Sequence record: OR896157.1 | DNA from: a phage | Length of the DNA stretch: 64,000 bases | Direction: 5' to 3' (one strand) | In this document: positions 46,804 through 52,151 of the stretch, piece after piece | Position numbering within the stretch: position 1 is the stretch's first letter | Layout of the letters: each line of letters starts with the position of its first letter | Program-made: the position numbers and the translations under genes | Notes under the pieces: generated by a model | The model's input: only the letters and a program-made list of their open reading frames with translations | What the model was told of the DNA's origin: nothing | The model's database searches: none

Positions 46804-46879
46804 TGGTGCCGGTTAACGGATTCGAACCGCTGACCCTCTCATTACAAATGAGCTGCTCTACCAACTGAGCTAAACCGGC
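46804..46879 (-). tRNA. tRNA-Thr (anticodon UGU)
   Basis: manual fold: acceptor GCCGGUU/AACCGGC, D GCUC..GAGC, anticodon loop UUUGUAA, T-loop GGUUCGAAUCC, CCA encoded. Confidence 0.8.
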
Positions 46880-46880
46880 T

Positions 46881-46965
46881 TGGTGCATCAAGAGGGATTC
46901 GAACCCTCAATCCTTTCGGCGGGGCATTTTAAGTGCCCTGTGTATACCAGTTCCACCATTGATGC
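46881..46965 (-). tRNA. tRNA-Leu (anticodon UAA), class II
   Basis: acceptor GCAUCAA/UUGAUGC, anticodon loop CUUAAAA, 13-nt variable arm, T-arm GAGGG-UUCGAAU-CCCUC. Confidence 0.8.
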
Positions 46966-46971
46966 GAAATT

Positions 46972-47056
46972 TGGAGCTAGGAGTGAGATTCGAACTCACG
47001 AAGGGATACCCGGCGGATTTGCAATCCGCTGCCTTTGGCCACTCAGCAACCCTAGC
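46972..47056 (-). tRNA. tRNA with class-II architecture and anticodon GCA (Cys-type)
   Basis: acceptor GCUAGGG/UCCUAGC, anticodon stem-loop GCGGA-UUGCAAA-UCCGC, 13-nt variable arm CGGGUAUCCCUUC; assignment tentative. Confidence 0.5.
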
Positions 47057-47060
47057 AAAT

Positions 47061-47138
47061 TGGTCGAGGTAGAGGGATTCGAACCCGTCGACCTGTGGAT
47101 TAGAAGTCCACTGCTCTATCCAGCTGAGCTATACCCCG
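47061..47138 (-). tRNA. tRNA-Arg (anticodon UCU)
   Basis: acceptor CGGGGUA/UACCUCG, D GCUC..GAGC, anticodon loop CUUCUAA; T-stem has only 3 clean pairs. Confidence 0.7.
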
Positions 47139-49634: not shown

Positions 49635-49695
49635 TCTTTTTCCTTAGTGGTTTTGATAAGGTAATTATATACTGAATTTTTAAAGCGTTTTCACT

Positions 49696-49971: not shown

Positions 49972-49978
49972 AATTTGT

Positions 49979-50070
49979 ACGGAACGCCTGGATTCGAACC
50001 AGGTTAAATTGCGATTGACGTCACAATTTATCTTATGAAGGCCATGCCTCTACCATATCCGAACGTTCCG
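49979..50070 (-). tRNA. atypical tRNA-like gene / possible pseudo-tRNA with CAU-type anticodon loop (UUCAUAA) and a 9-bp hairpin insertion
   Basis: perfect 7-bp acceptor CGGAACG/CGUUCCG and T-arm CCUGG-UUCGAAU-CCAGG, but weak D and anticodon stems and a 26-nt perfect hairpin before the T-arm. Confidence 0.35.
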
Positions 50071-50121
50071 TCAAAAACGCTACTCGGCTTACGGCTTAGG
50101 CAATTCCTCGAACCGATAATT

Positions 50122-50199: not shown

Positions 50200-50293
50200 T
50201 GGAGGAAGCGGTGGGATTCGAACCCACGGACCGTATCACTACGGCCTCCGCATTTCAAGTGCGGTGCAATTAACCAGACTCTGCCACGCTTCC
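50200..50293 (-). tRNA. tRNA-Ser (anticodon UGA), class II
   Basis: acceptor GGAAGCG/CGCUUCC, anticodon stem-loop CCGCA-CUUGAAA-UGCGG, long variable arm, T-arm GUGGG-UUCGAAU-CCCAC. Confidence 0.85.
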
Positions 50294-50297
50294 GAAT

Positions 50298-50373
50298 TGG
50301 GGTGACCGATGGGAGTTGAACCCATGACTACGAGAATCACAATCTCGAGTTCTACCAACTGAACTACGGCCAC
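50298..50373 (-). tRNA. tRNA-His (anticodon GUG)
   Basis: acceptor GUGGCCG/CGGUCAC, D GUUC..GAAC, anticodon stem-loop CGAGA-UUGUGAU-UCUCG. Confidence 0.85.
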
Positions 50374-50668: not shown

Positions 50669-50745
50669 TGGAGGCGGGTGATGGACTCGAACCATCGCGT
50701 AACGGGATATGAACCCGTCATTCTACCAACTGAAGTTAACCCGCA
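50669..50745 (-). tRNA. tRNA-Met (anticodon CAU), initiator-like features
   Basis: anticodon stem ACGGG/CCCGU with three consecutive G-C pairs next to loop UUCAUAU; position 1:72 mismatched; T-arm GAUGG-UUCGAGU-CCAUC. Confidence 0.65.
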
Positions 50746-50898
50746 TCTATCCGGATTCTTGAAGTACTAACAAGTAGCTTGATGTAGAACACGCTAAAGA
50801 TATAATCTTACGAATATAGAGCTTATTCCGTGGGAACAAACAGCTTCGTCCTCGGCATTATCTTACAGGACTCTGACTTATCTTCAAGAACTGCCTCG

Positions 50899-51363
50899 TT
50901 ATTTTATGAACTTATTTATGAATCGTCTAGCTTGAGTATGACTGACTCCAAGTTCATTTGCAAATTTTACTAATGCACCACGTTTTGTGAAATCAATAGA
51001 ATTATATAAATCTATTCTTAAAGCAATTTCATCTGCAGTGAATTTATGAGCATGATTTTCTGATATTTTTATTTTTGTTTCATCAGAATGATTATGTCCA
51101 GTAAAACCAGTAGATACGATTCTTCCATTTGCGCCAGCGTCTTTAGCATTTTGCGCATTAGTTGCGCAATAAATGTTATCCAAAGAATATGGTCCAACAT
51201 CTCCTTTACGACACATACAATAATTATCTGAGGCTCTACCGCGCAAATGATATTTGCCAGTAGCTTTCCACCATGATAGCCATTCATCAAATGTCAGTTT
51301 AAATTCAATACCTCTTGATTTAGCATGCACTTTTTGCATGCGATACTTTTCATAATCTTTCAT
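50899..51363 (-). CDS. putative freestanding homing endonuclease-like protein (nuclease-like N-half, HTH-like C-half) inside the tRNA array
   Basis: 154-aa ORF; N-terminal GIEFKLTFDEW...NYCMCRKGDVGPYSLDNIYCATNAQNAKD, C-terminal helix-turn-helix-like; T4 carries segB at the analogous place. Confidence 0.4.
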   Translation of the reverse strand: MKDYEKYRMQKVHAKSRGIEFKLTFDEWLSWWKATGKYHLRGRASDNYCMCRKGDVGPYSLDNIYCATNAQNAKDAGANGRIVSTGFTGHNHSDETKIKISENHAHKFTADEIALRIDLYNSIDFTKRGALVKFANELGVSHTQARRFINKFIK

Positions 51364-51377
51364 ATTACTCTCATATT

Positions 51378-51454
51378 TGGCAGTGCTGACGGGTTTCGAA
51401 CCCGCGATCTCTCCCGTGACAGGGGAGTGTCTTGACCATCTCGACTACAGCACT
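51378..51454 (-). tRNA. tRNA-Asp (anticodon GUC)
   Basis: acceptor AGUGCUG/CAGCACU, anticodon stem-loop CUCCC-CUGUCAC-GGGAG, T-loop UUCGAAA. Confidence 0.85.
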
Positions 51455-51699
51455 ATAAATTTACTTTCGTGAGTATGGGATTACCCTCAAGCCTTCCGGA
51501 AAGCTGAATAGGCGTTATTGGCTCTCATATACCCGTGCACAGATATAATCTTCATTAACGCAATAACTTCATCAATATACTCCGAAAGTAAACTTTCGGC
51601 GCCGTATTTAATTTTGACTGTGTAGTTATCGTTGAGGGAACTCACAGACAGGGATTAAAGTGCCGACGACTTATCAGAACGTCTTCTGACTTCTACATT

Positions 51700-52063: not shown

Positions 52064-52151
52064 TGGTGGGGAGTGATGGAGTCGAACCACCCGAGTCGCA
52101 ATGACAACAGATTTACAGTCTGCACCGCTACCTCTACGGAATTAACTCCCC
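52064..52151 (-). tRNA. tRNA-Tyr (anticodon GUA), class II
   Basis: acceptor GGGGAGU/ACUCCCC, anticodon stem-loop GCAGA-CUGUAAA-UCUGU, long variable arm; 5 nt between acceptor and D-stem. Confidence 0.75.

Follow-up and report, generated by a model that had tools for sequence, protein, structure and literature searches.

We find that a small cassette made up of one allele of tRNA-Asp (W), a 14-nt leader and an ORF of 154 aa replaces another allele of tRNA-Asp (V) in two T4-like genera, with sharp borders. The ORF (50899..51363, minus strand; ATG start, stop codon included; from the ORF list) lies in a stretch of phage DNA of 64,000 nucleotides (OR896157.1), here called the window, and it is optional, under selection, lower in GC than the genome, and modular. 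On the strength of sequence comparison, structure prediction and analogy, we consider it fairly probable that this candidate encodes a free-standing homing endonuclease and forms a mobile unit with the tRNA-Asp gene upstream of it. This reading is supported by the presence/absence polymorphism of the ORF, its low GC, a tail shared with known endonucleases, a predicted nuclease fold and residence in tRNA clusters. All that goes beyond the exchange of the cassette as a unit, nuclease activity and homing included, we infer.

Results

An optional gene between tRNA-Asp and tRNA-Met

The window belongs to the genus Karamvirus (Straboviridae, Tevenvirinae; PG7/CC31 group), a T-even relative, and its tRNA array is 93-96% identical to those of Karamvirus phages of Enterobacter, Klebsiella and Cronobacter. 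The earlier note had placed an ORF of this length inside the array, and this is confirmed: it sits between tRNA-Asp(GUC) (51378-51454) and tRNA-Met (50669-50745), and all tRNAs of the array are on the minus strand, in the same orientation as the ORF. The ORF is a real gene under strong purifying selection, as comparison with the 95%-identical copy of phage Hyena gives 34.5 synonymous and 8.5 non-synonymous differences (dN/dS 0.046), and comparison with the 72%-identical copy of Serratia phage LC53 gives a dN/dS of 0.12. Its GC content is 32.9%, versus 39.4% for the window. According to the ORF list and the tRNA calls, it is the sole candidate endonuclease gene in its segment of the window's array.

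The leader AAUAUGAGAGUAAU (51364..51377, minus strand; 14 nt) runs from the CCA end of tRNA-Asp to the ATG, contains a Shine-Dalgarno-like GAGAG, and is conserved in Hyena and LC53. On the other side of the ORF, the spacer to tRNA-Met (50746..50898, minus strand) is 90-100% identical across genera and is mosaic within Karamvirus, with a 29-bp indel. A promoter and terminator scan gave no signal exceeding shuffled expectation.

Comparison of the array with and without the ORF in related phages, as the earlier note had proposed, revealed a presence/absence polymorphism at the homologous site, with clean empty sites in both Karamvirus and Klebsiella T4-like phages. Most Karamvirus genomes cover 84% of a 2.9-kb query, and the absent 16% is the ORF. 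A clean empty site occurs in ∼20 close relatives; VPA32, PG7, SonariX, fGh-Ecl01 and AS6 are examples of Karamvirus phages that lack the ORF. Pairwise alignments against empty sites delimit the insertion to 50899..51373, that is, 475 bp consisting of the ORF from its stop codon and the 10 nt of the leader nearest the ATG. The CTC(G/A) repeat at the insert ends is short and beyond interpretation. The empty site reads CCTCG/TATTTGG in VPA32, fGh-Ecl04, CW742 and Pet-CM3-4 (the slash marks the junction), and CCTCA/TATTTGG in myPSH1140.

At ≥90% aa identity, the ORF is found in eight database phages from two genera: the copy in Enterobacter phage KMB20 is 100% identical, and those in KMB17, Citrobacter phage Ursula and five Klebsiella T4-like phages are ∼95% identical. 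The Ursula copy is annotated 'HNH endonuclease', and in GenBank some homologues already have this label or that of 'putative homing endonuclease'. Several other optional inserts occupy the same array, and the arrays of relatives hold bona fide GIY-YIG genes and other 'homing endonuclease' genes.

The ORF is exchanged together with an allele of tRNA-Asp

The tRNA-Asp(GUC) gene next to the ORF (51378..51454, minus strand; ARAGORN and Rfam, 64.7 bits) is the W allele. It is only about 72-73% identical to the V allele of ORF-less VPA32, and the acceptor and anticodon stems differ by compensatory changes; the flank beyond the 5' end of tRNA-Asp is ∼100% identical between the window and VPA32. The earlier note had suggested that an endonuclease gene could explain the degenerate tRNAs around it; the evidence supports this for the adjacent tRNA-Asp, a swapped allele, and not for the weak or odd tRNA calls elsewhere in the array.

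The W allele lies directly beside the ORF in 8/8 ORF-bearing database phages; W is carried by 19 records, among them all eight with the ORF (≥90% aa identity). V is the majority allele, with 121 records at ≥90% identity, and none of the eight ORF-bearing phages is among the 60 V records listed, of 121. At least nine phages, Pet-CM3-4 and myPSH1140 among them, have W with a clean empty site and no ORF. Three states of the site thus exist: V-empty, W-empty and W+ORF. A deletion between the short CTC repeats that border the insert would be expected to leave a junction like that of myPSH1140.

The swap recurs independently in a second genus, among Klebsiella phages: Hyena is W+ORF and Wolf is V-empty, both flanks are 97% identical, and the breakpoints coincide exactly with the 5' end of tRNA-Asp and the stop codon of the ORF. 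Between the window and Hyena, identity is 65-76% in the flanking genes, 38-62% in the spacer upstream of tRNA-Asp, and 86-100% in the block that extends from tRNA-Asp across the ORF into the spacer downstream. In LC53 (Winklervirus), the 72%-identical ORF follows a W-like tRNA-Asp (83% identical to W, 68% to V), which suggests, at the level of sequence, that the linkage of the ORF to this type of tRNA-Asp is old. Taken together, the allele linkage, the swap in two genera and the block of high identity indicate that the exchanged unit is [tRNA-Asp(W) - leader - ORF]. A very recent transfer between the genera is weakened by the dS of 0.5 between the window and Hyena copies, and thus the exchange is not very recent.

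Profile searches and rejected identities

The ORF protein falls into PHROG 16521 ('unknown function', E 8e-58) and has weak PHROG matches to 'HNH endonuclease' (E 5e-4 to 0.07) and 'homing endonuclease' families. No curated nuclease-family profile (Pfam, NCBIfam, PADLOC) matches the ORF protein, NCBIfam and PADLOC giving zero matches of any kind, and the curated HNH profiles (Pfam HNH, HNH_3) match neither the query nor 30 members of its family. PDB sequence searches, with the single protein and with family profiles, returned noise or a marginal match to the I-TevI DNA-binding domain. The earlier note had named the lack of any nuclease-family profile match as the result that would count against it; formally this is what we found, and the core idea is still supported by the comparative evidence.

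Several specific identities were considered and rejected. Membership in the GIY-YIG/SegB group fails because the GIY-YIG domain (PF01541) has no Pfam match even at E≤10, and BLASTP against T4 SegB gives an E value of 0.47, confined to a NUMOD3-like motif. A canonical HNH enzyme is ruled out by the lack of a conserved His in the N-terminal domain. The earlier note had described the N-terminal half as Cys-rich; it has only three Cys (49, 51 and 66), all replaceable in homologues, and a zinc-finger or Cys-rich nuclease is rejected because these residues lack conservation. A component of a defence system was set aside on the zero PADLOC matches. Finally, Hef of phage U5, considered as the 'unique' T-even endonuclease, belongs to the Vsr-like (I-Bth0305I) family.

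A predicted PacI-like N-terminal domain

The N-terminal domain (aa 1-80; 51124..51363, minus strand) is predicted to adopt a beta-beta-alpha, His-Me finger-like fold of the PacI type, without zinc sites. The AlphaFold model, built on a 118-sequence alignment, has a mean pLDDT of 90 and places in this domain two helices, then a strand (48-52), a loop, a second strand (64-68) and a helix (69-79). The best solved structural match to the predicted domain is PacI. The nuclease-like N-terminal half described in the earlier note is supported by the predicted fold, and not by any curated nuclease profile.

The conserved residues of the domain are R17, W28, W32, M50, R52, D55, G57, P58, Y59, N63 and N72. 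In the 118 sequences, R52, D55, G57, P58, Y59 and N72 are ≥90% conserved and N63 is invariant; there is no conserved His or Cys in the N-domain alignment. Conservation and the alignment to PacI together define a putative catalytic motif, R52-x2-D55-x3-Y59-x3-N63-x8-N72 (RKGDVGPYSLDNIYCATNAQN; 51148..51210, minus strand).

PacI, a His-Me finger (HNH) enzyme, has no catalytic His; a Tyr in the loop between the strands substitutes for it, and a single metal ion is held by one Asp and one Asn (PMC5714182, PMC4081073). We took the roles of PacI residues from these two reviews and the numbering from the verified PDB sequence; we assumed that D92 is the Asp that binds the metal, on the model of the D-H pair found in other HNH enzymes. 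Profile-profile alignment (hhalign; PacI and nine homologues) gave pairwise E values of 0.0018-0.011 and probabilities of 4-15%, and hmmsearch of PDB sequences did not recover PacI, so that the apparent sequence relationship is only marginally significant. The register was the same in every run (R52=R93, Y59=Y100, N63=N104, N72=N113), and the spacing R-x6-Y-x3-N-x8-N is identical in PacI and in the N-domain family. PacI D92 aligns to the variable C51 of the ORF protein, and the invariant loop residue D55 is a feature of the family in place of D92.

The traits of His-Me finger nucleases are found in part. The predicted fold contains the beta-hairpin followed by an alpha-helix that characterizes the metal finger, and residues corresponding by alignment to the structural Asn and to the metal-binding Asn of the helix are present (N63 and N72; N104 and N113 in PacI). 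Where the first strand ends, the catalytic His is missing and R52 takes its position. Of the traits specific to PacI, the near-invariant Y59 and R52 represent the Tyr of the loop and the Arg that stands where the His would be; their catalytic role is putative. The two Cys4 zinc-binding motifs are absent, none of the 3 Cys being conserved. Setting the shared register against three differences, we regard the domain as probably PacI-like, both in fold and in chemistry, but not as a demonstrated member of the PacI group.

The N-terminal domain defines a large, phage-borne family of more than 6,000 clusters: its profile, run against 1.84 billion representatives, matches 6,186 clusters at E≤1e-3. 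In the 30 members sampled, there is no Pfam match within this domain. Family members combine it with NUMOD3, NUMOD1 or the I-TevI DNA-binding domain as partners, and many of the top-scoring members contain two copies of it, an arrangement that fits the working of PacI as a homodimer. The two family members that we viewed in context are located in phage morphogenesis regions.

A C-terminal half shared with GIY-YIG endonucleases

The two domains are joined by a linker (aa 81-107; 51043..51123, minus strand) with a NUMOD3-like motif (GHNHSDETKIKISE, aa 89-102). The Pfam search for HNH, GIY-YIG and NUMOD domains that the earlier note had proposed came back with this motif alone, as a sub-threshold match to NUMOD3 (E 0.051, 14 bits, cut-off 20.4). 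In fGh-Ecl04, the GIY-YIG endonuclease has a segment that aligns with this motif (E 5e-4); the confidence of the structural model is low in the linker (pLDDT 57-72). The remainder (aa 108-154; 50902..51042, minus strand) is predicted to form four helices, with fold matches to HTH domains of the Myb, homeodomain and Fis types, in agreement with the HTH-like C-terminal half that the earlier note had read from the sequence. The ORF protein thus has a C-terminal region of the NUMOD3/HTH DNA-binding type that is a trait of GIY-YIG homing endonucleases.

The agreement with such enzymes extends to the whole tail: GIY-YIG endonucleases encoded by Erwinia phage FBB1 and in metagenomes have a C-terminus that matches aa 81-152 of the ORF protein at 61% identity (E 2e-27). 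The FBB1-type genes are themselves located in phage tRNA arrays, where they start at the 3' end of tRNA-Pro and stop at tRNA-Ala. Thus one tail is combined with two unrelated catalytic heads in the same niche, and the sequences suggest a swap of the catalytic head, GIY-YIG versus PacI-like, on a common DNA-binding tail.

This architecture bears on the strongest alternative, which we regard as unlikely: that the protein is a nuclease-dead, domesticated DNA binder whose N-terminal domain is a relic of a His-Me finger, comparable to the Smad MH1 domain. Such a site-specific binder might regulate transcription of the tRNA cluster, or recombination, with the patchy distribution reflecting the plasticity of a hypervariable region. 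The lack of a conserved His, with R52 in its position, is in line with a relic, as is the lack of conservation of the residue aligned to PacI D92, and His-Me groups that lack both the His and the Tyr are deemed inactive (PMC5714182). Strong purifying selection fits some useful host function, and the array has several further optional inserts. On the other hand, the loop Tyr and the Asn residues are near-invariant and identically spaced across a family of thousands, which is hard to explain without catalysis; the combination of head, NUMOD-type linker and HTH, together with the exchange with a GIY-YIG head, is typical of active modular endonucleases; and the tandem two-domain members mimic the PacI dimer.

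Homologues are located behind tRNA genes in eight T4-like lineages

The homologues that we sampled in eight T4-like lineages (38-72% aa identity) all begin 5-150 nt after a tRNA gene. They lie within tRNA clusters, behind tRNAs of differing isotypes, and several of them terminate at or within the next tRNA. The order is Ser/ORF/Met in WL-3 and in T2L 'trna.1' (both Tequatrovirus), Asn/ORF/Tyr in Aeromonas phage 31 (Biquartavirus; 'not conserved in 44RR'), Gln/ORF/Arg in S16 (Gelderlandvirus), Asp/ORF/Lys in LC53 (Winklervirus), Asn/ORF/Ile in phiAS5 (Chrysonvirus), Arg/ORF and no following tRNA in KPN6 (Jiaodavirus), and Ile/ORF/Lys for an unannotated paralogue in CW742 (Karamvirus). T2L trna.1 (AJ880101) and PHG31p119nc of Aeromonas phage 31 are true homologues, 50% and 51% identical in aa sequence to the ORF protein, but occupy other inter-tRNA positions than the ORF of the window (Ser-Met and Asn-Tyr). 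As annotated, T2L trna.1 is missing its first ∼30 aa; the paper on SegB homing (Brok-Volchanskaya et al. 2008, PMC2330249) lists it only as 'unknown function'. In the literature, no cleavage, target or cross is reported for any member of the family. The distribution argues for a site preference of the family's own, after tRNA genes.

These positions also help to judge a second alternative, less likely than a DNA-binding relic, according to which the ORF is a passive passenger, an accessory gene with an unrelated function that is moved by homologous recombination between tRNA genes or by other, Seg-like GIY-YIG endonucleases of the array and does not drive its own spread. Candidates for such a role exist, as GIY-YIG and other 'homing endonuclease' genes are found in the same array of relatives, and there is a precedent in T4, where SegB drags flanking DNA of the tRNA region along and excludes T2L trna.1, a homologue of the ORF (PMC2330249); the mosaic breakpoints immediately beside the ORF are also compatible with passive movement. 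However, the segment of the array in the window is without any other endonuclease gene, the borders of the swap are equally sharp in two genera, and the post-tRNA positions in eight lineages, combined with a tail of the homing endonuclease type, argue that the ORF has its own preference of site.

A third alternative, that the protein acts on tRNA or pre-tRNA or amplifies tRNA genes against tRNA-targeting host defences, and that selection favours this benefit in place of homing, draws on the presumed co-transcription with tRNA (the ORF starts 14 nt from the tRNA 3' end), on the strong purifying selection and on the ability of SegB to amplify tRNA genes and so defeat the Septu defence system (PMC13096335), but is very improbable in view of the zero matches to PADLOC or other defence profiles, of a tail that is the DNA-binding module of homing endonucleases, and of homologues beside so many tRNA isotypes that there is no tRNA-specific pairing outside the Asp-linked subgroup; since amplification by SegB requires DNA cleavage, it would in any case be an added benefit and not a different mechanism.

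Discussion

A proposed model for homing with co-conversion of tRNA-Asp

The anatomy of the ORF matches that of the free-standing homing endonucleases of T-even phages: conserved genes lie on either side of it, and flanking polymorphisms are co-inherited. The homing endonuclease that we favor could operate as follows. The ORF would be transcribed within the tRNA precursor and translated from the GAGAG site, which 3' processing of tRNA-Asp would leave near the 5' end of the message. The NUMOD3-like linker and the HTH domain would bind DNA in or beside a tRNA gene in an ORF-less co-infecting phage, and the beta-beta-alpha head would cut this target. Cleavage would use a single metal ion held by N72, perhaps together with D55; Y59, in the loop between the strands, would replace the missing catalytic His as in PacI, with R52 in the place of the His. 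Phage recombination would then repair the break on the ORF-bearing template, copying both the ORF and the W tRNA-Asp into the recipient. The cycle would amount to homing with co-conversion, in which the W tRNA-Asp is co-converted cargo. The carrier genome could be protected either by the W allele itself or by the ORF, which disrupts the junction. W-empty genomes may represent the ancestral homing site or products of ORF loss.

A broader proposal is more speculative, and we offer it tentatively, as a possibility that may well prove wrong in one or more of its parts: that there is a phage clade of more than 6,000 clusters, without Pfam entry, of zinc-free, Tyr-type, PacI-related nucleases, one branch of which has, in T4-like phages, become a homing endonuclease specific to tRNA arrays in a two-gene cassette, with tRNA-Asp serving as both cargo and resistant allele, and in which the head has been exchanged with GIY-YIG on the same tail.

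Significance

Homing-endonuclease-like genes in phage tRNA arrays are of an already known kind. The novelty is in the combination: a PacI-like domain family that is large, zinc-free and uncurated; a Seg-type tail fused to it; strict residence after tRNA genes in T4-like phages; and the co-movement of tRNA-Asp in a three-state polymorphism that is replicated in two genera. Genome mosaicism in T4-like phages is shaped by free-standing homing endonucleases, which also determine the markers that come through a co-infection; SegB is the model case. An active ORF protein would mean that two unrelated catalytic types have converged on phage tRNA arrays, and it would provide a function for T2L trna.1 and for hundreds of 'hypothetical' genes in therapeutic phages of Enterobacter, Klebsiella and E. 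coli. It would also offer an experimental handle on a very large domain family that may use the rare Tyr chemistry documented for PacI. If the protein is inactive, the ORF is an ordinary accessory gene of a hypervariable region. With its three states, V-empty, W-empty and W+ORF, in two genera, the polymorphism offers a natural setting in which the homing cycle and target immunity can be studied.

Comparison with known endonucleases

It is instructive to place the ORF protein among enzymes that resemble it in one part or another. PacI (PDB 3ldy/3m7k; His-Me finger group 20, Jablonska et al. 2017) is similar in having a loop Tyr and no catalytic His, and its N-terminal helical segment has the same 'A(K/N)K.G..LT' pattern. 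It differs in its two Cys4 zinc sites and an 18-aa CxxC insertion, both absent from the ORF protein, and in being a homodimeric restriction enzyme without a NUMOD/HTH tail. HNH homing endonucleases of the I-HmuI type are likewise phage-borne, free-standing or intron-borne, and combine a beta-beta-alpha-metal head with NUMOD/HTH tails; unlike the ORF protein, canonical HNH enzymes keep the D-H...N set and match Pfam HNH/HNH_3. Two further groups are comparable by their published description: the HNH endonucleases F-TflI/II/IV, which reside in the tRNA cluster of phage T5 (PMC2330249), and the 'PacI-like HNHE' class of Skunavirus, for which PacI-like phage genes were recognised by HHpred (PMC12724721). 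In an assay of lactococcal-phage enzymes, one PacI-like enzyme was included, and it is absent from those reported active (PMC12724721).

The FBB1-type GIY-YIG endonucleases (P0004, P0006 and P0007) share with the ORF protein the 61%-identical C-terminal 72 aa (E 2e-27) and a seat in phage tRNA arrays immediately after a tRNA gene, in their case tRNA-Pro; their head is GIY-YIG (PF01541), whereas that of the ORF protein is PacI-like.

SegB of T4 is a free-standing GIY-YIG homing endonuclease in the tRNA cluster, shown to home in T4 x T2L crosses; it cuts the 3' part of tRNA genes in phages that lack segB and is then copied together with neighbouring tRNA genes (PMC2330249). The earlier note had seen the same arrangement here, and its layout stands, as a free-standing and optional gene splits the array; the parallel does not reach the catalytic domain, since the ORF protein has no GIY-YIG motif. 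Activity, target and homing are proven for SegB, and in the case of the ORF we infer them from comparison. The likeness nevertheless includes the position between two co-oriented and presumably co-transcribed tRNA genes, optional presence in close relatives, exchange of the flanking tRNA genes along with the ORF, and a linker motif of the NUMOD3 type, so that, by analogy, SegB would be the closest functional counterpart of the ORF.

A recombination breakpoint beside the ORF

Immediately 3' of the 154-aa ORF, a candidate free-standing homing endonuclease gene in the tRNA array, lies a mosaic patch with a 29-bp indel (window 50783-50882). One version of this patch is common to the window, VPA32 and myPSH1140, and the other to KMB20, fGh-Ecl04 and Pet-CM3-4. 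KMB20 and the window are 100% identical across the ORF despite carrying different versions of the patch, which marks a recombination breakpoint adjoining the ORF.

We also compared the empty site of myPSH1140 (locus L005, ~1295-1310) with window 50894-50899 and 51368-51377. Its junction reads CCTCA/TATTTGG, versus CCTCG/TATTTGG in other relatives lacking the ORF, and the A is the same as the final base of the insert (CTCTCA/TATTTGG). Judged from the junction sequence, this A is as would be expected if the ORF had been lost through deletion between short CTC repeats.

Homologues and other optional inserts

Two homologues of the ORF lack annotation: a 169-aa paralogue with 49% amino acid identity in Enterobacter phage CW742 (locus L004, 3168..3677, minus strand), located between tRNA-Ile and tRNA-Lys and overlapping the annotated tRNA-Lys, and the LC53 copy (locus L016, 1501-1962).

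The array of relatives carries further optional inserts: a GIY-YIG Seg-like endonuclease gene in the tRNA-Ser/tRNA-His interval of fGh-Ecl04 and CW742 (loci L003, 2064-2678, and L004, 1498-2112), and a 185-aa ORF upstream of tRNA-Phe in KMB20 and fGh-Ecl04 (locus L001, 879-1436). The window is empty at both sites (~50293-50298 and ~49686-49694). In Klebsiella phage Wolf_ER13, an annotated 'homing endonuclease' lies between tRNA-Gly and tRNA-Pro (locus L018, 1323-1985); this gene is absent from Hyena, which instead has the ORF under study. Each thus having its own endonuclease gene, these sister phages carry different endonucleases at different positions in one tRNA array.

tRNA calls and the spacer upstream of tRNA-Asp

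The odd tRNAs of the array are two minus-strand calls. The weak tRNA at window 52067-52151 (39 bits in Rfam; missed by ARAGORN) is annotated in relatives as tRNA-Tyr or 'tRNA-Pseudo-GTA', and the 95-nt 'tRNA-Met' called by ARAGORN at 49977-50071 has no match in Rfam and no such tRNA in the VPA32 annotation. Besides the main array, and 2.2 kb downstream of it, there is a further, distinct cluster comprising the tRNA genes for Thr, Leu, Cys and Arg (window 46804-47138, minus strand); small protein-coding ORFs occupy the interval between the two.

The 245-nt spacer upstream of tRNA-Asp (window 51455-51699, minus strand) contains a 52-aa ORF (51487..51645), is ~100% identical to its VPA32 counterpart, and gave zero matches in an Rfam search. 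Its folding stability far exceeds that of shuffled controls (z -3.74), with none of 200 shuffles equally stable, and the spacer may be a small stable RNA resembling T4 rnaC/rnaD.
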